From: Alphaproteobacteria bacterium
Lineage (GTDB): Bacteria; Pseudomonadota; Alphaproteobacteria; Rickettsiales; UBA998
Assembly: GCA_043765375.1 (NCBI GenBank)
Contig: JAYUJH010000035.1
Span: forward strand, 7,348-71,347
Direction: 5' to 3'
Length of the DNA stretch: 64,000 nt
Below the pieces are notes generated by a model. That model saw nothing but the letters and a program-made list of their open reading frames with translations, was not told the origin of the DNA and ran no database searches. The number at the start of each line of letters is the position of its first letter. Position 1 is the stretch's first letter. Position numbers and translations under genes: made by a program. Below, in pieces: positions 26,860 to 60,890 of this stretch.

Positions 26860-26987
26860 AATTTATATCCAAACATTATTAATTCAATCGTCTATATATA
26901 ATCAATGTCGTTTTAATGTCAAGCAATTTTTCACAGCATTCGCAATCAATATTTCCAGATTGTCACAAAATATTAACAATTAAGTAA

Positions 26988-27015
26988 TTGACTTTAACGG
27001 GGGGGGGGGTAAAAT
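26988..27015 (+). promoter_or_regulatory. Sigma70-like promoter TTGACT-N16-TAAAAT whose spacer contains a G11 homopolymer
   Basis: The -35 ttgact is at 26988-26993. The spacer ttaac+G11 is at 26994-27009. The -10 taaaat is at 27010-27015, about 80 nt upstream of the ATG at 27096. Confidence 0.55.
26999..27009. repeat. G11 homopolymeric tract
   Basis: Eleven consecutive G, counted directly in an AT-rich intergenic region. Confidence 0.95.
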
Positions 27016-27095
27016 AATTATTGGTAATAGATTGGTTTATGATTTGTTTTTAAGCAAATTATAAACCAGCAGATTTTTTATTCCTAGAGGGAAAA

Positions 27096-27398
27096 ATGCA
27101 AAATTGGAAATTGAAATTATCGGCAGCGGCAACGGCGGTATGTGCATTAGTAGCTTTAGCTATTAATGTAAGTGCTCCAAAAAAAATTACATTAATAGGA
27201 ACGCTCTCAACAAGAGTGACCAATGGAGGCACTCTTTTAGTAGTAAAAGATGCCAAAGGCGAACAGAAATTAATGGCGTTAGGAAATACTCCTGAATTAG
27301 TTGATACCATTCTTCCTAACAGATTGTCCATTATAGTAGGAGTAGAAAATAATGAAGGACTACCAATAGTTACTTCAATCAGTTGCAACCAATGGTAG
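27096..27398 (+). CDS. Small secreted hypothetical protein
   Basis: 100 aa with a signal-peptide-like N-terminus, KLKLSAAATAVCALVALAINVSA. The SD-like gaggga lies before the ATG, and a strong terminator follows. Confidence 0.55.
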   Translation: MQNWKLKLSAAATAVCALVALAINVSAPKKITLIGTLSTRVTNGGTLLVVKDAKGEQKLMALGNTPELVDTILPNRLSIIVGVENNEGLPIVTSISCNQW

Positions 27399-27425
27399 TA
27401 AGTTTTTGAATGATGATAATTTCTT

Positions 27426-27452
27426 AAAAGAGCCCGCAAGGCTCTTTTTTTT
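27426..27452 (+). terminator. Rho-independent terminator
   Basis: aaaagagcc-cgcaa-ggctcttttttttt: a GC-rich stem followed by a T-run. Confidence 0.75.
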
Positions 27453-27592
27453 GGGAGTATTATATTGGGATTATTCATAATAGTGAAAATAATATAATAT
27501 ACACCCCTCACGTTTCAGCTTTGCTTACATTAGTAAGCTCGCTTCAACCGCTCTCCCGCAAGGGGAGAGCATAAGCATATTACAACTTTTTC

Positions 27593-28466: not shown

Positions 28467-29621
28467 TTATGCTGCTCTTCCACTTGACATTATCTTATTA
28501 ACTCCTTGTGATTGAGCGAATATCTGGTCATTGGCAGGTTGAAGTTGTGTTAGATTTCCAGATGATTGAGCAGTTCGTTCAGCTTCCTTATTCTGATGAT
28601 TATTATGTAGCACAATTCCACCAACAACGGCTAACGTTCCAAGCACTGCTGCACCAACTTTTACTGATGTCGGCAAATTGTTGACCTTGGTTCCTAAAGA
28701 TTTTGCGGTTTCCGCTGCTTTTTCCTTCCACCCTCCTTTTGCAACTGATTCGGTAACGGCTTCTGCAACTTCATCTCCGTTTTGTGATACAACTTTTGCA
28801 ACGTCATCTTTTATCTCGTTTGTGACTACTTGTTTGGTTGCTTCCCCCATTTTTTCCAAGCCTTCGGTTACAATTCCCTCAACAGGCGGAAGAGGATTTG
28901 AGACTTTTGGAACAGCAGATTGTGCAGCGTCTACTACGTTATTAACTGCTGCTGTTGCACCATTTGGCAAGTCTGAGGCTAAATCGGTTTTAACGTTAGA
29001 CCATTGCTCCGAATTTGCATTTCTAGGAGAAATACCAATCGCTTCTGCTCCTTCTGTTAATTTGGTCGCATTGGCTGTAAGATCTGTTGCTACTTCAGTT
29101 ATTATTGCTGGTGCGGCAGGGGGTTGGACGGAAGCAATATTGCCAGCAGCAACTTCTGTAATCTCACTAATAGCGGTTTGCGCAACTGCGTGGGGGGGGG
29201 GGGTGGTATTGCTAACAATATCAGTAGCAGCATTACTTATATTATCTACTGCACTGCTATTAGCAATAGTCTGCGGAAGTGCTTCGGATACAGTGCTGGC
29301 GGCTTGAGTTGCTTTCTTTTGCAAATCACTAACCACTTGACTTTGCTCGTGAAGAATATTTCTAACCGCGCTGCTAAAACCATTTTCTGTTTTTAACAGT
29401 GTTCCGCTATAATCTCCAACATCATTTATTTTTGTAAGGGCTTCTGAAATTTCTGGGCTTCCTTCAAACGCTTTTAACAATTCTGGATTTGTAAAAACTT
29501 CTTTGAACTGTTCGTTTTGCACACCAGAAAGCGTCTGTAATTTCTCATAATCGCTTATGTTTTGTCTTGAAGCAAGGCTTATTAATTTTTTAATAACTTC
29601 TTCAGCAGGTTCTATTTTCAT
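28467..29621 (-). CDS. Hypothetical Ala/Thr/Val-rich tail-anchored protein containing a C12 tract
   Basis: 384 aa with no signal peptide. A single TM lies near the C-terminus (VGAAVLGTLAVVGGIVL). I recognise no domain. It is inserted between hisF and hisA. Confidence 0.55.
   Translation of the reverse strand: MKIEPAEEVIKKLISLASRQNISDYEKLQTLSGVQNEQFKEVFTNPELLKAFEGSPEISEALTKINDVGDYSGTLLKTENGFSSAVRNILHEQSQVVSDLQKKATQAASTVSEALPQTIANSSAVDNISNAATDIVSNTTPPPHAVAQTAISEITEVAAGNIASVQPPAAPAIITEVATDLTANATKLTEGAEAIGISPRNANSEQWSNVKTDLASDLPNGATAAVNNVVDAAQSAVPKVSNPLPPVEGIVTEGLEKMGEATKQVVTNEIKDDVAKVVSQNGDEVAEAVTESVAKGGWKEKAAETAKSLGTKVNNLPTSVKVGAAVLGTLAVVGGIVLHNNHQNKEAERTAQSSGNLTQLQPANDQIFAQSQGVNKIMSSGRAA
29192..29203. 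repeat. G12 (C12 on the coding strand) homopolymeric tract inside the CDS
   Basis: Counted directly. It encodes TPPPH within ...SNTTPPPHAVAQ.... Confidence 0.95.
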
Positions 29622-30625: not shown

Positions 30626-30809
30626 AACCATAACAGCGCAATATTAATGCACTATTCAATCTTTTTTGCACATTCATGATTTTATTACAACAGTAAAAAT
30701 TAAAAATGTATAAAAAAAAGCATATGTGATATTTTTGTTGAAATATTGTGACGTTTTTGTCTATAAGCATATTTAAGAATTGGAAAATGTATATTTTGGA
30801 GTAGATATA

Positions 30810-31514
30810 ATGAGAATAAGTGCGGTGAGAATAAGTAAAAAAAATATATTAATGTCATTAGCTGTCGCATTAATGGCGGGCGGGTCGCAGGCTCAAGAAG
30901 CTGCTTATCCTTCAAGCCAACATGGCGAGGGACGTTGGCCAAATTGGTATGTTGGCGTTAAAGGCTCGCTCAATTATGTTGATGATACAAATATTGCATC
31001 TGCCAACAGAAATGTTGGTGACTTAGGTTTTGATTCTGGTTACGGAGTGGCTGGATCAATTGGATATACACCAGGGCCAACGGGAAGCGTGCTAGATTAT
31101 ACTCGCTTTGAGTTTGAAATTGGGCATCGTTTCAATGATTTGGAGAACTTCACCGCTGGCGGAAAAGTTAGCAGTGTTTCTGGTAATATTAAATCATATA
31201 GTTATATGATGAACGCTTATTTTGATTTTGATACTCAAACGCAGGTTAGCCCTTATGTTGGTGCGGGTATTGGTTTGGATACGATTAGCATGAGTTCCAA
31301 AGGGCTTGGCGTTCAAGATGAAGACAAAGTATTCGCATATCAATTTATGGCGGGGCTTGGCTGGCAACCTGAGTTTATGTTGAATACTGTGTTGCAAGTT
31401 GGTTATCGTTATCACGGCACGACTGACCCAACATTCACCGCAAGCACGGGGCAGAGCGTTGAACATGAATATACAACTCACGCATTGGAAGCTGGCGCAA
31501 GATTCAGATTCTAG
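30810..31514 (+). CDS. Outer-membrane beta-barrel protein (OmpA-like/porin family)
   Basis: The signal peptide ends AGGSQAQEA. It has alternating amphipathic strands and the terminal ...GARFRF with an aromatic last residue. Confidence 0.7.
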   Translation: MRISAVRISKKNILMSLAVALMAGGSQAQEAAYPSSQHGEGRWPNWYVGVKGSLNYVDDTNIASANRNVGDLGFDSGYGVAGSIGYTPGPTGSVLDYTRFEFEIGHRFNDLENFTAGGKVSSVSGNIKSYSYMMNAYFDFDTQTQVSPYVGAGIGLDTISMSSKGLGVQDEDKVFAYQFMAGLGWQPEFMLNTVLQVGYRYHGTTDPTFTASTGQSVEHEYTTHALEAGARFRF

Positions 31515-31716: not shown

Positions 31717-33024
31717 GTGTTTAGCTCAAAGAAAATATCTGAATTAAAAACACGATTGGATTTGACAAAGTCATTCAACTCGTCGCAGTCACTTTTTGTT
31801 GTGATTTTTATGGTTATGCAATTTTGTATGCCATCATTTGTAATATATTCGTTTTGGTTTTATCTGTTCATCGCAATTCCAACGATATACATAGTGTTAA
31901 AATATGTGATGGTTGGCCAGAAACAAATATTATCATTAATATGGCAAAATAATGACAGAAAATTGTTATTTTTATTATTCGCATATATCATAATTCACTC
32001 ATTGTTTTTTTATGGAACATTGCAAACAATTCGCCATTCAATAACTAACTTGTTGTTCGTGCTTGCCATGATTATGTTTCATCGCAACTTAAACCAGCAT
32101 AATATGTTGCGATTTATCAGATTAATGTTGTGGGTGGTGGTGATTTGTGGAATTATCTCAATTGCGAAATATGTTGCATTTCCCCACGAAAATGGACGAT
32201 TAATTCCAATTGGGCAGAATAATCACGCTATTTTAGGCGCAAATATATATGCTTTATTCTCGCTGATGGGGTTATGTTTGTGGCGCAGGGTTGAAAATAT
32301 TTCACCAAATTATATGCCAACTGGTGAATTATTGGGTGTCACAGCTTCGCATCAGAACATAAAAGATAAAATGTTGGTTGTTGCTGCATTTTTGGTAACC
32401 GCAATTTTGATTTTGCTCACCCAAAGTAGAGGGCCGTTAATTGCGTTTTGTTGCAGCGGGGCAGTTGGTTTGCTGATGATGCGCCATTATAAAATATTCG
32501 CTGCATCATTAATAATCATCGCAATTTTAATCGCTGATATGTGGTTTTTTTATTACAATAATTATAGCATTCTTCCGCTCGCTGAATATTACGAATATTT
32601 GCTTGATGCGCTCCACCGCAAATCACATCGGTTGGAGATTTGGCAGCTTGCATGGCAGTTAATCGCTAGACAACCTGTGTTTGGCTATGGTATGCAAGCA
32701 ACATTTCCTTATGGTTATGCGGGAGTAAATCCTCACAATTTGTTCATCTCAACATGGTATTATACGGGCATCATGGGGTTTGTTTTGTTGCTCGCAATTG
32801 TGATGAATGCGTTGGTTAATTTATATAAAAATCATAGCCAAGATATTGCTTTTATTGGCTTTTTACTGTTAATCCATGGCGTGATTGCGTGTTTGACCGA
32901 TCAAGGGCAGTTAGTCAAAACACCATCACCATTATGGTTTATATTTTGGTGGCCAATCGCCAATTCATGCGCTATTTCCTATCAAAACACTATAGTTGAG
33001 AAAACTATAGTTGAAAAAAACTAA
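31717..33024 (+). CDS. O-antigen ligase family (Wzy_C) membrane protein
   Basis: 435 aa and polytopic. It has LTQSRGPLIAF and a large loop with HRKSHRLEIWQ...GYG...NPHN, as in the WaaL/O-antigen ligase family. Confidence 0.7.
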   Translation: MFSSKKISELKTRLDLTKSFNSSQSLFVVIFMVMQFCMPSFVIYSFWFYLFIAIPTIYIVLKYVMVGQKQILSLIWQNNDRKLLFLLFAYIIIHSLFFYGTLQTIRHSITNLLFVLAMIMFHRNLNQHNMLRFIRLMLWVVVICGIISIAKYVAFPHENGRLIPIGQNNHAILGANIYALFSLMGLCLWRRVENISPNYMPTGELLGVTASHQNIKDKMLVVAAFLVTAILILLTQSRGPLIAFCCSGAVGLLMMRHYKIFAASLIIIAILIADMWFFYYNNYSILPLAEYYEYLLDALHRKSHRLEIWQLAWQLIARQPVFGYGMQATFPYGYAGVNPHNLFISTWYYTGIMGFVLLLAIVMNALVNLYKNHSQDIAFIGFLLLIHGVIACLTDQGQLVKTPSPLWFIFWWPIANSCAISYQNTIVEKTIVEKN

Positions 33025-35900: not shown

Positions 35901-37160
35901 ATGAGAAAAATTGCGGTGATTGGGTCTGGTATTTCGGGGCTTGGAGCAGCATATTTGTTGCAACATCAATATGACGTAACATTATTTGAAAAGCAACATC
36001 GCCTCGGTGGACATGCCCGCACCGTTAATGTGAATTATGCGGGTGAGGAAATTGCGGTTGATACTGGATTTATCGTATTTAATTATCGCAATTATCCGCA
36101 TTTGACGGCAATGTTTAAGCATTTAGATGTGCCAGTGAAATTGAGTGATATGTCGCTAGGTTTGAGCCTCGGGGGGGGGAAGTTTGAGTGGGGTTGCCAA
36201 GGTTTGAGTGCTGTGTTTGCACAAAAAAGCAACATTATAAGCCCGAGATTTTGGGGTATGATTAAGGATATTTTGCGTTTTAATAAATGTGTGCATCAGT
36301 TCAAAAACTCTAATCTAACGCTTGGCGAAATATTGTTGCAACTCAAAATGGGTGAGGATTTTAAGAACCGCTTTTTGTTGCCAACCGCAGGGGCAATATG
36401 GAGCTGTTCACCGCAACAAATATTAGATTTTCCTGCTAGTTCATTCATTAACTTCTTTGATAATCATGGGTTATTGACGGTGAATGATCAACCAAAATGG
36501 TGGACTGTTGACGGTGGTAGCATTGAATATGTTAATCGTATTGCTGCTAATTTTAAGGGTGAAATCAAGCTAAATGCCAATATCTCAAGTGTCCGACGTG
36601 CTGATGACAAAAATAATGTGATGGTTGAGGTGATTAATGACGGCGAGGTAATGCTATTTGATGAGGTGGTTTTTGCCACTCATAGCGATCAGGCTTTGCG
36701 GTTGCTGGTTGATGCTGGGACTGACGAAACAAATATTTTATCCAACATAACATATCAAAAAAATCACGCTTATTTGCATCGTGATAATTCGCTTATGCCA
36801 AAACGCAAAGCCGCATGGGCAAGTTGGAACTATTTATGCGATGATGTGGTTGATGAAAACGCGCATATCACTTTGACTTATTGGATGAATAGATTGCAAT
36901 CAATTCCGCATGATAAACCATTATTTGTGACGCTAAACCCTGCTAAAACGCCCCGTGATGAGATGATTTATGACCAAGTAACATTTGAGCACCCTGTTTA
37001 TAATCAAGCAGCATTGCAGGCACAAACTGAAATGATTAATATTCAAGGGGGCAGGGGAGTATGGTTTTGTGGTGCTTATATGCGCTATGGTTTTCATGAA
37101 GATGGGTTAAATAGTGCGGTTGAAGTGGCAAAAATGCTCGGGGTTGAAGTTCCGTGGTGA
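35901..37160 (+). CDS. NAD(P)/FAD-dependent oxidoreductase (amine-oxidase fold) of the cfa cluster
   Basis: KIAVIGSGISGLGAAYLL is a Rossmann motif. It is the first gene of the conserved oxidoreductase-DUF1365-CFA synthase trio. It contains a G9 run. Confidence 0.8.
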   Translation: MRKIAVIGSGISGLGAAYLLQHQYDVTLFEKQHRLGGHARTVNVNYAGEEIAVDTGFIVFNYRNYPHLTAMFKHLDVPVKLSDMSLGLSLGGGKFEWGCQGLSAVFAQKSNIISPRFWGMIKDILRFNKCVHQFKNSNLTLGEILLQLKMGEDFKNRFLLPTAGAIWSCSPQQILDFPASSFINFFDNHGLLTVNDQPKWWTVDGGSIEYVNRIAANFKGEIKLNANISSVRRADDKNNVMVEVINDGEVMLFDEVVFATHSDQALRLLVDAGTDETNILSNITYQKNHAYLHRDNSLMPKRKAAWASWNYLCDDVVDENAHITLTYWMNRLQSIPHDKPLFVTLNPAKTPRDEMIYDQVTFEHPVYNQAALQAQTEMINIQGGRGVWFCGAYMRYGFHEDGLNSAVEVAKMLGVEVPW

Positions 37161-46662: not shown

Positions 46663-48288
46663 TCATATATCAAGTCCTACTTGCACATTTCTACTTTCTT
46701 TGGTAGCTTTTTTGAAGCCGCTAGAATCAATTAATGGAATATGAGGCTTTGCTCCGTTCAATAAATCAGTGATAGTGAATATTTGCATTTTCGGATATTT
46801 ACCATATTCAGTTTCATAGTAACCAAGTTTAGCTGCCTCTGCAATCATTGGTGTGGTGGGTGACACAAGCGTTATAAATATACCAATTTTTGCTCCTTCA
46901 CGCTCCACCACATGCCCCAAATCACGTATCATGGCAACTGAAACATTCTCTCCACCTTTTACTGAAATAATAGCAATTTCGGTGTTTTTATTATCTGGTT
47001 TGAAATGCACTAAACCATCAATTCCCCCATCTGCACCTTTCTTTTTGCCACCATAAGGCACTGCTTGCTTGATGAGTGAAATTGCCCACCATTGAAACTG
47101 ATATTTGTCTTTTTGCGCCAAAGCCCGTGCGCCTTCCAAATCTTTTGGCGTGCCATGCACTGTGAACCTCGCATCATTGAACGCATCATATAAACGTTTT
47201 TCAATTAGCGAGATAGCAAGATTGGTGATATCAATCCCAATCCACCTCCTACCCAGTTTTTCTGCAGCATGAATTGCCGTGCCACAACCACAAAATGGAT
47301 CCATCACCGTGTCACCCTCTTTGGAAGATGTGGCAATGATGCGCTCTAATAATGATACTGGTTTTTGCGTAGGATATCCGAGATATTCCTTTGCATTTGC
47401 GCCTAGTGGTGGAATGTCCGTCCAAATATTGGTTACTAACAACCCTTTTTGCTCATTTAGATAACGCTTTAATGTTAATCTTTTATAATATTCTGGATTG
47501 CCTTCTTTATCTGCTGGATAATTAACTCTACCCTCATCGTGTAGTTGTTGCATTGTATCACGTTGATAACGCCAACCTTTTTTAGGATATCCATAGCCTT
47601 TCCATTCATACATCATATTGGGGCGTGGGCTAGGGCTTGACATATTATCTAACATATAAACGCCACGCCCATCGCCATCATCAAAACGATATGATTTTTT
47701 GATATATTCAGGATTATGTTCATTATATTGCGGGTTAAAATAAATATCCTTGCCTTTGCTATAAAACAAAATAATATCCGAAACATTGGGATATTTATTT
47801 TTAGAATCATTATGCGAGCCAGTTCGCTTCCATGTTATTTCGTTTCTAAAGTTGTTTTTGCCAAAAATACTATCCATTAATATTTTCAGATAATGTGAGG
47901 CGGTTGGGTCGCAATGCAGATATATGCTACCAGTTGGTTTTAGCACCCTATGCAGTTCCAGCAAGCGCACGCACATCATGGTGAGATATGCCATCATATC
48001 ATTCTCACGCAACAGCGCACGAATTGCCCGCAACATAGTAGATGCGTCAGTATAAGTGCTGTGCATAACTTGGTCAAACGCATCTTCGGCTTCCATGCTC
48101 CACACCCATGTATCTTCAAAGGCTTCAATCTGTGCTTGGCTTTGCAGAGTTTTGCTTGATTTGAACAATAGGTTATAATTCTTTTTAGAATTAAATGGTG
48201 GGTCAAGATATATTAAATCCACGCTATCATCTTTAATATGATTGCGAATAATCTCTAAATTATCACCGTAATATAATTCATTATTCAT
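46663..48288 (-). CDS. Beta-class N6/N4 DNA methyltransferase fused to a C-terminal Mrr-like (PD-(D/E)xK) nuclease domain
   Basis: 541 aa. Motif IV DLIYLDPPFNS precedes motif I DPFCGCGTAIHAAEKLGRRWIGIDI. The C-terminus GADGGIDGLVHF...IISVKGGENV resembles the Mrr catalytic core. Confidence 0.8.
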   Translation of the reverse strand: MNNELYYGDNLEIIRNHIKDDSVDLIYLDPPFNSKKNYNLLFKSSKTLQSQAQIEAFEDTWVWSMEAEDAFDQVMHSTYTDASTMLRAIRALLRENDMMAYLTMMCVRLLELHRVLKPTGSIYLHCDPTASHYLKILMDSIFGKNNFRNEITWKRTGSHNDSKNKYPNVSDIILFYSKGKDIYFNPQYNEHNPEYIKKSYRFDDGDGRGVYMLDNMSSPSPRPNMMYEWKGYGYPKKGWRYQRDTMQQLHDEGRVNYPADKEGNPEYYKRLTLKRYLNEQKGLLVTNIWTDIPPLGANAKEYLGYPTQKPVSLLERIIATSSKEGDTVMDPFCGCGTAIHAAEKLGRRWIGIDITNLAISLIEKRLYDAFNDARFTVHGTPKDLEGARALAQKDKYQFQWWAISLIKQAVPYGGKKKGADGGIDGLVHFKPDNKNTEIAIISVKGGENVSVAMIRDLGHVVEREGAKIGIFITLVSPTTPMIAEAAKLGYYETEYGKYPKMQIFTITDLLNGAKPHIPLIDSSGFKKATKESRNVQVGLDI

Positions 48289-56687: not shown

Positions 56688-56762
56688 AGTGAAACCTTGC
56701 ATATTTCTGCAAATTGTGTAAATTACGTTGCTATATTATAATCAAAATTGAGCAATTTTTTC

Positions 56763-59700
56763 ATGTCACAAACCAAACAGAATTATCCACAAGTGAAATC
56801 CGATGTTAGCTTTCCGCAGCTTGAGCGTGAAGTGCTAGATTTTTGGCAAAGAGAGCGGGTATTTGAGCAATCAGTGGCGATGCGTCCCGCTACAAAATCT
56901 ATGCTCCCTGCAATAAATGGTGATAGTAGCAATGCTTATGTGTTCTATGATGGTCCTCCATTTGCAAATGGGTTGCCACATCATGGACATTTACTGACTG
57001 GATATGTTAAGGATATGTTCGCCCGCTATCAAACAATGAAAGGCAAACGGGTTGAGCGACGCTTTGGTTGGGATTGTCACGGGCTGCCCGCAGAAATGGA
57101 GGCGGAAAAGCAATTAGGCGTATCAGGGCGAGCAAATATCATAAATTATGGGGTGGAAAAGTTCAATGCGCATTGCCGCACTTCTGTGATGGCGTATCGT
57201 AATGAATGGGAGGAATATGTTAATCGCCAAGCAAGATGGGTGGATTTTGAGAATGATTATAAAACCATGGATACGCCTTATATGGAGTCGGTGCTATGGG
57301 CTTTTGCGGAGCTGCATAAAAAGGGCTTGATCTATGAGGGGTTTAAGGTGATGCCTTATAGTTGGGCGGCAGAAACAGTGCTTTCCACCTCCGAAATCCG
57401 CATGGACGATGCCACAAGAGAGAAGGTGGACAAAGCGGTTACAGTTGCATTTAAGTTGAAAGAAGTTCCAAAAAAACTAAAAGAGCTAGCTGATAATTTT
57501 CAAAATGGTGCAGAAATATATTTATTAGCATGGACAACAACCCCGTGGACATTGCCAAGCAATTTAGCGTTGGCGGTTAGTGAAAAGGTAAGCTACTCTG
57601 CCTTTGAGTGTTTCCATAAAAATGGAAAAATAGATTGGTTTATACAATATTGTAATGCAGGTAACCTTTCAGCTGCAAAAGAATTATTAGAAAGAAATAC
57701 AAACTGTGAAATTGGACAAATAATTGATATAACTCATGCGAATGAAGATAAGTTATCTTCTTTGGTTGGACTTCAATATGAACCATTATTCCCCTATTTT
57801 GCGAATCACCCAAACGCTTTCAAAGTGCTTGATGGCAGTGATTTCATTGAGGAAGGGGCGGGGACGGGGATTGTTCACATGGCGCCCGCATTTGGTGAAG
57901 ATGATATGCGCATATGCGCCGCAAACGGAATTGAGGTGGTAATTCCAGTTGATGGCGAAGGAAAATATAGCGATGCAATTTATGATTTAACCAGTATTCA
58001 AACCAAGCGTTGCATTTTGCGCACTCCAACTGATTCAGATGCAAGCAATTTTTTGCGGTTGCATACTAATCCACAAGTCATGGCAACGGTTAATGATGGC
58101 TTGATGAGTGAAGCGGAGGCAAATGAAGATTTCGCCCGTAATTTGGCGCATTTCAAGCAACATAGTTATGGTCAATTTGCGGTTTATAATCGTGATAATG
58201 GTGCATTTATGGGGCGTGCGGGTTTGAGTTTTTCTGCGCAAACTGATGGATTTCCCGCCCGTCCAACCTTGCGTTGCGCACTTCTGCCTGAGTTTTGGCA
58301 TGGTGGATATGGTGGTGAGTTATGCGCTGCTGCAATAGAATATGGCTTTAATTATTTGGGTTTTTCGGAAATAGCGGGCGGTGCATTGGAGAATAATCCA
58401 CGTTCACATGAAATGATGAAACGTTTAGGCATGAAATATGTGCAAGATGTGATGTTCAAACGTTCTATGGGACCTTATTTTTTGATAACTAAGCAGGATT
58501 TTGTTGGCGATAATGCTATTATAGTAAATATTTTTTCTCTTAAAGGGTTAAATGTTATTCAAGAAACAGAAAAATTGAATAAATTGGAAAAAGAAGACCA
58601 ACAAAAATATGAAAAATCCAAATATAGTATTAAAAACTTAAATCAGTTTGGGCTTGCAAATATAAGAATTGCTAAATGGCTTAATGACAAAGGCGTTTTA
58701 ATTAAAGAAGATAATGATTTTAGGCATAATTATCCGCATTGCTGGCGAACTGATAAGCCGATTATTTATCGTGCGATGTCTTCATGGTTTGTTGATGTGC
58801 CAAAAATCAAAGATCGTATGATTGAGCTAAATCAGCAAATAAACTGGATTCCTGAACATGTGAAAGATGGTAGATTTGGCAAATGGCTTGAGGGCGCAAG
58901 AGAATGGTCAATTAGTCGTTCACGTTTTTGGGGCTGCCCAATCCCCGTATGGCGCAGTGATAACCCTGAAAATACGCAATTATATGTGTTTGAATCAATT
59001 GCTGAGTTGGAGCAATTTTTTGGCGTTAAAGTGGAAGATTTGCATAAACCATTCATTGACACATTAACCAAGCCAGACCCAACTAATGCGAAATATACAT
59101 TATCACGTGTTGATGAAGTGTTTGATTGCTGGTTTGAATCTGGCTCAATGCCTTATGCGCAGGTGCATTATCCGTTTGAGAACAAAGAATGGTTTGAGGC
59201 TAACTTCCCCGCTGATTTCATTGTGGAATATGAGGCACAAACACGGGGCTGGTTTTATAATATGATGGTGCTATCTGTTGCATTATTTGACCGTATTCCG
59301 TTTAAGAATTGTATTTGTCATGGCGTGGTGCTGGACGGTGAAGGGCGAAAACTTTCCAAAAAGCTCAAAAATTATGTAAGCCCGATGGAATTATTTGATG
59401 AATATGGCTCAGATGCGCTGCGCTGGTTTTTGATGTCATCAACCATTATGCGGGGCAATGAGTTGTTTCTTGACGCTGAAGGTGTGTTTATCCGTGATGC
59501 TGTGCGCCTATATATTAAACCATTATGGAATGCTTACAACTTCTTTTGCCTATATGCAAATGCGGACGGAGTTGTAGCTAATTTTGATTTAAGTTCGGCA
59601 AATATAATGGATAAATATATTTTGGCGAAATTAAAGGCGTGCGTGGGGGCAGTTGAGATTGCGCTTGATGCTTATGATACGCCAACGGCTTGTGCGATCA

Positions 59701-60890
59701 TCACCGCATTTTTGGAGGTGCTAAATAATTGGTATATCAGGCGCAATCGTGGCAGGTTCTGGGGTGAAGCGGTGGATAGCGATAAAATATCCGCATATAA
59801 TACGCTTTATTCTGTGTTGCATGTGATGTGCCGATTGGTTGCACCTTTATTGCCGCAAATCAGCGAGGTGATTTTTGCGGGGCTGATAAATGGCGGTGAT
59901 TTTGAACGCAATCACAGCGTTCATTTAACAGATTTTCCAACTGAGTTAGCACAAATGGCAGATGATGCGAACATAATGCAAGCGATGGATCGGGTGCAAG
60001 ATATATGCAATACCGCACATGCAATACGAAATGAGGTGAATATCCGCACCCGTCAACCACTGAGCAAATTAACAATTTATGGCGTGAAGATTAATGATAA
60101 TGCGGATTATTTTAAGGCGTTGATAGCTGATGAAGTGAATGTGAAAGAGGTTATGTTTTCTGATGATTTGGAGGCGGTTGCAACCCGCAACCTGAAAATC
60201 AGTTTTCCATTAGTTGGTAAGCGACTACCAGCTAAAATGAAAGCGATTGCAGCAGCAGCAAAATCAGGAAATTGGAAAATAATAGATGCAAATCAAAATA
60301 ATATATCTCATAATAGCGATAATGTATCAGTTAAAGAATGTCATAATCTTAACATGCAACGTGATATTAAAGGAAAAAAAATGATACATAACACTTTTTC
60401 TTATATCACAAAGTATTCAATTGAAATTGAAGGTGAAGTTTTGCATTCCAATGAATATGAGTTCACATTGCAATCAACCATTAAAGATGCAAAAGATGTT
60501 GCCGTGCGTTCGCTCCCTGCGCAAGATGGTTTGCTAGTGCTGGATACTAACTTAAGCGAGGCACTGATAAGCGAGGGGGTAGCGCGTGATGTGGTGCGGT
60601 TGATCCAGCAATCACGCAAAGATGCGGGGCTTAATGTGGCAGACCGTATTGCATTAATGATTGATGCACCCGCAAATGTGCTAAAAGCCATCACCGAGCA
60701 TCAGGGTTATGTGTGTGAACAAACATTAACGGAGAGCCTAATTTTTGGGATAAGTTCAAATGTTGGAACAAGCGCAACGCAACATTCCGCAAGCCATAAT
60801 TTGGGTGATGCAATTGTTGCTTTATCATTTAATGTGGCAGCGAATGATGCGAATATTAAGCAAATAAACGTTAAGCAAGTGGCGGGGTGA
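56763..60890 (+). CDS. ileS: Isoleucine-tRNA ligase (type 2) carrying an embedded GNAT acetyltransferase domain
   Basis: 1375 codons from the ATG at 56763. HIGH is PHHGH and KMSKS is KLSKK. [26 protein letters not shown] and [21 protein letters not shown] are present. A GNAT-like ~165 aa lies at roughly 57990-58500. Confidence 0.9.
   Translation: [1375 protein letters not shown]

Follow-up and report, generated by a model that had tools for sequence, protein, structure and literature searches.

In the 64,000-nucleotide stretch of DNA analysed here (the window), which comes from an uncultured environmental alphaproteobacterium, a run of eleven G was found to make up most of the spacer between the -35 and -10 hexamers of a predicted promoter, and the length of this run differed among related genomes, in one comparison between otherwise identical contigs. 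Based on these comparisons we consider it probable (roughly 0.65) that the tract acts as an SSR (contingency) switch on transcription, giving phase or 'volume' variation of the porA/opc/fetA type. Slipped-strand mispairing at replication would add or remove G's in the promoter spacer, and the tract would set the distance between the hexamers (17 nt with G12, 16 nt with G11, 15 nt with G10 and 13 nt with G8), with promoter strength changing heritably and reversibly with tract length. The promoter, predicted to be of the sigma-70 type, would drive a monocistronic mRNA with a conserved 5' stem-loop, and the encoded product would be exported, small and quick to evolve, perhaps with an OB fold. The window genome would have the switch in a near-optimal, expressing state.

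A 90%-identity cluster of L21 served to find syntenic contigs, which belong to three relatives, species B, C and D; the window represents species A. The promoter region contained the following elements.

26957 to 26987, plus strand: AT-rich block, a possible UP element or activator site, of which about 30 nt can be aligned with species B, C and D
26988 to 27015, plus strand: the switch module as it lies in the window, TTGACTTTAAC-Gn, with the layout TTGACT-TTAAC-Gn-TAAAAT
26988 to 26993, plus strand: -35 hexamer TTGACT, the same in 4/4 species
26994 to 26998, plus strand: TTAAC, the fixed part of the spacer, the same in 4/4 species
26999 to 27009, plus strand: G11 homopolymer, which sets the -35/-10 spacing (16 nt here); G8, G10, G12 or G-T-G9 in the relatives
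27010 to 27015, plus strand: -10 hexamer TAAAAT, the same in species B and C (3/4 species with the window); TAAGCT in species D

An earlier note on this DNA had described the TTGACT hexamer, the 16-nt spacer made of TTAAC plus G11, and the TAAAAT hexamer, and all the coordinates were reproduced. The same note had called a G11 run very improbable by chance, in agreement with the 0.002 (base composition) to 0.003 (first-order Markov) runs of at least 11 G that are expected per window. The window has a GC content of 38.9%, its longest A or T run is no longer than 8 nt and its longest C run no longer than 7 nt. The promoter matched the consensus at 10/12 positions, and the scan gave 14 such sites in 3 kb as compared to 8.9 ± 3.3 in shuffles. 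A hexamer match alone is not significant in DNA this rich in AT, and the promoter call draws its weight from conservation in related genomes, not from the consensus match alone. The layout that characterizes SSR transcriptional phase variation of the porA/opc/fetA type was found in the window and again in the three related species. Transcription would start near 27022.

Next to the promoter, the genes rplU, rpmA, hisF and hisA of the relatives showed 76-80% nucleotide identity to the window. The promoter block (26959 to 27012, 54 nt) was 91% identical to species D, and identity to species B and C was about 77.5% over the promoter and leader up to codon 4. The remaining intergenic DNA was unalignable between the window and the relatives; in BLASTN the homology started at 26959, and the sequences farther upstream were unrelated. 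The G tract and the resulting spacers were as follows.

Species A: G11, spacer 16 nt (window, L001)
Species C: G12, spacer 17 nt (L085/L107, L108)
Species B: G8, spacer 13 nt (L087 = L091 = L103, L093, L104, L106; four samples)
Species B: G10, spacer 15 nt (L095; one sample)
Species D: G-T-G9, spacer 16 nt, with the -10 hexamer degraded to TAAGCT (L082, L083)

It had been stated beforehand that a length invariant across related strains would speak against a switch, and that strains or metagenome bins should be compared. The tract was found to vary instead (G8, G10, G11, G12, G-T-G9), and G8 and G10 were present in contigs that are otherwise the same: L095 (G10) and L087 (G8) had 0 substitutions over 920 nt, their sole difference being a 2-nt indel in the tract. 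Seven A/T runs of 6-7 nt were unchanged between these two contigs across the same 920 nt. As a control, rplU loci from 80 other alphaproteobacteria (594 kb) contained no G/C run of at least 8 nt. Since the alleles vary against identical flanks and G/C runs of this length are absent from the control, the alignments indicate a real, lineage-specific tract that has been kept despite substantial divergence and mutates far more readily than the sequence around it. Differences in tract length between strains are an accepted in-silico criterion for phase variation (PMC5320596), and here such differences were found with the flanks kept.

An ENA metagenome contig of 492 kb (L001) matched the window at 100% identity across 10.3 kb, and the small protein of the window species was present in five further assemblies too. 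A scan of GTDB genomes with L21 gave as the best match an alphaproteobacterial MAG with 68% identity, and no close relative. Scanning a metagenome contig collection with ATTGACTTTAACGKGGGGG gave three unrelated chance matches only, and that collection evidently contains no relevant contigs, so the scan has no bearing on further copies of the module.

Under the sigma-70 spacing rules, spacers of 13-17 nt cover the range between a non-functional and an optimal promoter. Because the rplU promoter of the same organism also uses a 16-nt spacer, the allele of the window is predicted to be ON, with expression of the window cargo. For the G8 allele the best alternative -35 at 17 nt was TTTATT, which by inspection agrees at only 3/6 positions and therefore implies low expression in most species-B populations; G8 is 3-4 steps away from the predicted ON lengths. 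A 'stochastic tuning' of the cargo, as proposed in the earlier note, would follow from the promoter-spacing rules and the porA precedent, and we likewise infer the TSS, the rate at which the tract slips and reverts, and an effect of its length on expression. The consensus alleles were repeatable (G8 in 4/5 species-B samples and G12 in two species-C contigs; some contigs may come from shared or related samples, e.g. JGI versus Logan or ENA assemblies), which argues for a moderate and not a very high switching rate. The G8 allele of species B looks fairly stable, and its recurrence fits either a moderate rate or long-term selection for OFF.

Taken together, the rival explanations hold a substantial minority of the probability. 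The one that survives best is a mutational hotspot in a real promoter with no adaptive switch, in which lengths would be slowly fixed between lineages and the short alleles (G8, and G-T-G9 with TAAGCT) would be on their way to silencing and loss of a dispensable islet. We regard it as unlikely. It would account for a consensus of G8 in four samples of species B and for G12 in both contigs of species C, for the combination of interrupted tract, degraded -10 and replaced cargo in species D, and for the islet missing from two relatives (L089 and L101). Neutral homopolymers decay, whereas here 8-12 uninterrupted G's persist in three species at about 22-24% nucleotide divergence. The G8 genomes also keep their cargo ORFs intact, G8 and G10 occur within an otherwise identical 920 nt, and five contigs break at the tract.

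These five contigs (L086, L088, L092, L094 and L099) stop exactly at the tract (TTGACTTT or TTAAC), and a further contig, L105, picks up 21 nt past it. For a transcriptional switch the stops are an indirect hint of length change within populations; contig stops at poly-G can come from loss of Illumina coverage or quality, not heterogeneity. It is very improbable that the length differences as a whole were produced by sequencing or assembly errors in a long homopolymer whose true length is fixed: Illumina data do degrade at long G runs and several assemblies fail exactly at the tract, but independent samples repeatedly gave the same lengths (G8 four times, G12 twice), the species differ by up to 4 nt, and the other homopolymers in the same contigs are invariant.

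Downstream of the promoter the following features were found.

27033 to 27068, plus strand: leader stem-loop with a 16-bp stem, conserved in species B and C, followed in the window by T6 (27074 to 27079)
27087 to 27092, plus strand: SD-like GAGGGA, 3 nt before the ATG
27096 to 27398, plus strand: cargo gene, an ATG ORF for a 100-aa orphan, with the public gene call on the same strand
27426 to 27452, plus strand: intrinsic terminator, with a hairpin at 27426 to 27448 (9-bp stem, 5-nt loop) and a T-run to 27452; it folds with U8

The SD-like element, the 100-aa ORF and the strong terminator had been noted before as a self-contained monocistronic unit. Their coordinates were confirmed, the terminator folds, and the unit has both its own SD and its own terminator. 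The strong 16-bp leader hairpin was absent from that description. Its stem dominates the leader fold (-21.1 kcal/mol, z = -3.4), and compensatory double changes occur at 3 of the 15 pairs in the consensus structure of the three species with the hairpin; species D lacks it. A terminator scan flagged the hairpin together with T6. We treated it as a leader structure, perhaps for stability or attenuation, and not as a terminator, because species B has no U-run after the hairpin and species C only a short one, so that T6 is not a conserved feature.

The flagged, stable and structurally conserved hairpin would also suit a promoter whose main product is a short RNA of about 55 nt, non-coding or an attenuated leader, that ends at 27033-27068 and T6, with the ORF expressed by read-through only. 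We give this very low credence. Besides the changing U-run, the stem is AT-rich with 3 G-C pairs, and it is followed by an SD and an ORF with a strong terminator of its own. In an Rfam covariance search of the whole window only a tRNA reached the gathering threshold, and the leader hairpin had no family match. An antisense ORF of 150 aa (27059 to 27511, minus strand) was considered as a real gene and rejected: it has no SD and no conservation, and both the public calls and the orthologous positions are on the plus strand.

The protein behind the promoter has an N-terminus (MQNWKLKLSAAATAVCALVALAINVSA) that is basic and hydrophobic, with a Pro after a VSA site. A signal-peptide-like N-terminus had been proposed for it and was seen in the window product, which looks exported, and the cargo of relatives matched phage 'secreted protein' families. 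A word-indexed search of 5.8 billion proteins returned only the window cargo itself. Exhaustive HMMER over 1.84 billion representatives gave the cargo itself plus one repeat protein, P0012 (E = 7e-5), which was rejected as a homologue since its score was summed over four repeats and is uninformative. Pfam, NCBIfam, PADLOC and PDB-sequence searches gave nothing above noise for any cargo, of the window or of the relatives, and the window cargo had no PHROG family match.

At the same position species B and C encode proteins of 120 and 118 aa, which are 43% identical to each other (E = 7e-27) and match the PHROG 'secreted protein' families phrog_301 (1.9e-8) and phrog_6641 (2.6e-7), as well as an Arthrobacter phage 'secreted protein'. 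The likeness between the window cargo and these proteins is limited to the C-terminal 11 residues (LPIVTSISCNQ vs YPNVIEISCNQ), and orthology was not demonstrable by BLASTP (E = 28) or hhalign (probability 7%, last 11 residues only). Low-confidence AF2 models of the window and B/C types (pLDDT 50 and 64) both had an N-terminal helix followed by b1-b2-b3-a-b4-b5. With Foldseek the top PDB matches of both low-confidence models were all OB folds (among them AB5-toxin B subunits, YgiW and aaRS anticodon-binding domains), at levels that are not significant (E of at least 0.015, TM about 0.45-0.5). An OB fold for the window cargo is a lead from these models, not a result. The species D cargo is an unrelated 123-aa protein with no signal peptide, and it stands behind the decayed promoter.

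The locus is flanked by the rplU-rpmA operon, which is divergent and on the minus strand, and by hisF, which is convergent, and it has the following neighbours on the rplU side.

26922 to 26917 (TTGACA), N16, 26900 to 26895 (TATATA), minus strand: rplU-rpmA promoter, conserved in all relatives
4830 to 4935 in L082, 4905 to 5005 in L085 and 1985 to 2090 in L087 (approximate): MITE-like element

The rplU promoter is back-to-back with the G-tract promoter, the two -35 elements being 66 nt apart. Between the two promoters, species B, C and D have a palindromic, MITE-like element (GTCATTGCGAGCAAAGCGAAGCAATCC...GGAGGACTACGTCCTCCTCGCAATGAC, about 105 nt), which is absent from the window species; contig L100 stops at its edge. 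In L089 (1269 to 1333) and in L101, hisF is directly beside the rplU promoter and there is no MITE-like element, G-tract promoter or cargo. L101 shares its exact L21 protein with L099 and L100, which carry the islet, so the presence of the islet is polymorphic at a very short evolutionary distance. Because the species D cargo is unrelated and the islet is missing from L089 and L101, the comparison identifies the locus as a small presence/absence islet that swaps its cargo, and the switch as its most conserved part.

The position of the tract in the rplU upstream region, and the end of the species D homology just past the tract and the -10, near the boundary of the cargo replacement, could also be read as pointing to some other purpose for the tract, with coincidental hexamers: it might regulate the divergent rplU-rpmA operon, bind a protein or have a structural role, or mark a boundary of recombination. 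We think this highly unlikely. The hexamers flank the tract exactly in all species, and rplU has its own conserved promoter (TTGACA-N16-TATA(T/A)A), which is retained in the islet-free relatives. The MITE-like insert in species B, C and D means that the geometry relative to rplU is not conserved. A role of the tract as part of the rplU promoter itself was rejected on the same two points, the separate promoter and the altered geometry.

A bolder form of the switch reading is that the promoter, together with its structured leader, is a conserved, portable 'bet-hedging expression slot' beside rplU, kept across more than 20% divergence in a lineage of environmental Alphaproteobacteria while the cargo genes behind it are swapped. 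We hold this to be doubtful. In this reading the cargo would comprise exported OB-fold relatives of phage 'secreted proteins', an orphan in the window and an unrelated cytoplasmic protein in species D. If the slot exists, a free-living bacterium would stochastically display or hide an envelope factor relevant to phages or predators, and contingency-locus biology would extend well past host-adapted pathogens.

Homopolymer switches in promoter spacers are textbook knowledge for a few mucosal pathogens, such as Neisseria, Haemophilus, Bordetella and Mycoplasma. Our search of the literature for such switches in environmental uncultured Alphaproteobacteria found no description, and pathogen systems only. 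The mechanism itself is an established one; new are the lineage of the host, the orphan as cargo and the pairing of a conserved switch with variable cargo. We regard the locus as a new and well-supported candidate for porA/opc/fetA-type variation in an environmental alphaproteobacterium. The standard comparative signature (conserved promoter, varying tract and identical flanks) was obtained from public metagenome assemblies alone, which suggests that contingency loci could be mined from metagenomes. The coupling of the switch to a fast-evolving presence/absence islet, with cargo that resembles phage 'secreted proteins', hints at phage- or grazer-driven bet-hedging in natural populations.

In porA of N. 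meningitidis a poly-G tract lies between -35 and -10, and expression is high with 11G, about 2-fold lower with 10G and, at the surface, about 13-fold lower with 9G (PMC3639595). As in porA, with its approximately 9-11 G, the homopolymer in the window is made of G and lies in a promoter spacer, and it shares the G11 length; the gene behind it may likewise encode an envelope or exported product. The host here is an uncultured environmental alphaproteobacterium, whereas that of porA is a mucosal pathogen; the cargo is a 100-aa orphan and not a porin, and the alleles are wider (spacers of 13-17 nt) and are known from sequence alone.

Sarkari 1994 is said to be the reference for the poly-C promoter tracts of the opc/fetA type in Neisseria. 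The window locus is like opc and fetA (frpB) in having a homopolymer between -10 and -35 (poly-C there), and candidates of that kind were recognized by tract differences between strains (PMC5320596). Besides the differences in host and cargo given for porA, Neisseria genomes have dozens of such loci, in contrast to three long G tracts in the 64-kb window.

The lipoprotein genes vlp of Mycoplasma hyorhinis, a multi-copy family, carry a poly-A tract in their promoter spacers. They resemble the present locus in that mature coding regions of high divergence follow a conserved 5' module (in vlp a promoter with homopolymer spacer, a leader and a signal sequence); unlike vlp, the locus here is single, has poly-G and has no lipobox. 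A multigene family of the vlp kind was not found, as the module was present in one copy in the 64-kb window and in one copy per 10-kb locus of the relatives. In fim2/fim3 of Bordetella pertussis a poly-C promoter tract separates the site of the activator BvgA from the -10. There too a promoter homopolymer alters the distance from upstream recognition elements to the -10, whereas in our locus only a conserved 30-nt block lies upstream of the -35, with no known activator.

According to passages in PMC8355987 and PMC6321876, AT-rich Campylobacter has G/C tracts as its only long homopolymers, both intergenic and intragenic, and these act as contingency loci. Similarly to that phasome, the window also holds intragenic G12 and G9 tracts; most tracts in Campylobacter are intragenic frameshift switches, in contrast to the promoter spacing described here.

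The intragenic G12 was observed at 29192 to 29203, within ORF 28467-29621 on the minus strand, where it reads as C12 and encodes T-PPP-H, and is absent from the earlier note. The ORF encodes a 384-aa orphan with a C-terminal TM helix. Its frame is kept only at n=12, and n=10, 11, 13 or 14 would leave a truncated product of 150-173 aa. By its sequence this ORF is a candidate for phase variation by frameshift; it lies 2.2 kb away from the tract in the promoter. The slot between hisA and hisF holds different genes in the relatives (327 aa in L082; 160 and 266 aa in L085). The G9 at 36171 to 36179, also absent from the earlier note, lies in ORF 35901-37160 (plus strand), where it encodes LGGG. The product is flavin amine-oxidase-like, its gene is upstream of a cyclopropane-fatty-acid synthase gene, and G8 or G10 would cut it to about 100 aa.

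Additionally, we observed some other genes in the window. A class-I aminoacyl-tRNA synthetase of 1380 aa, IleRS-like (tRNA-synt_1, Anticodon_1, DUF5915), is encoded at 56748 to 60890 (plus strand) and has a GNAT domain (Acetyltransf_3, residues 421-563, E = 8e-20) inserted inside its catalytic domain, which is an unusual architecture. At 46663 to 48288 (minus strand) a 541-aa fusion joins N6/N4 DNA methylase and Mrr_cat restriction-endonuclease-like domains. Just past hisA there are genes for an outer-membrane beta-barrel, Surface_Ag_2/Opacity-like (30780 to 31514, plus strand), and for a Wzy_C O-antigen-ligase-like protein (31717 to 33024, plus strand), and the his genes are thus interleaved with envelope and variable genes.
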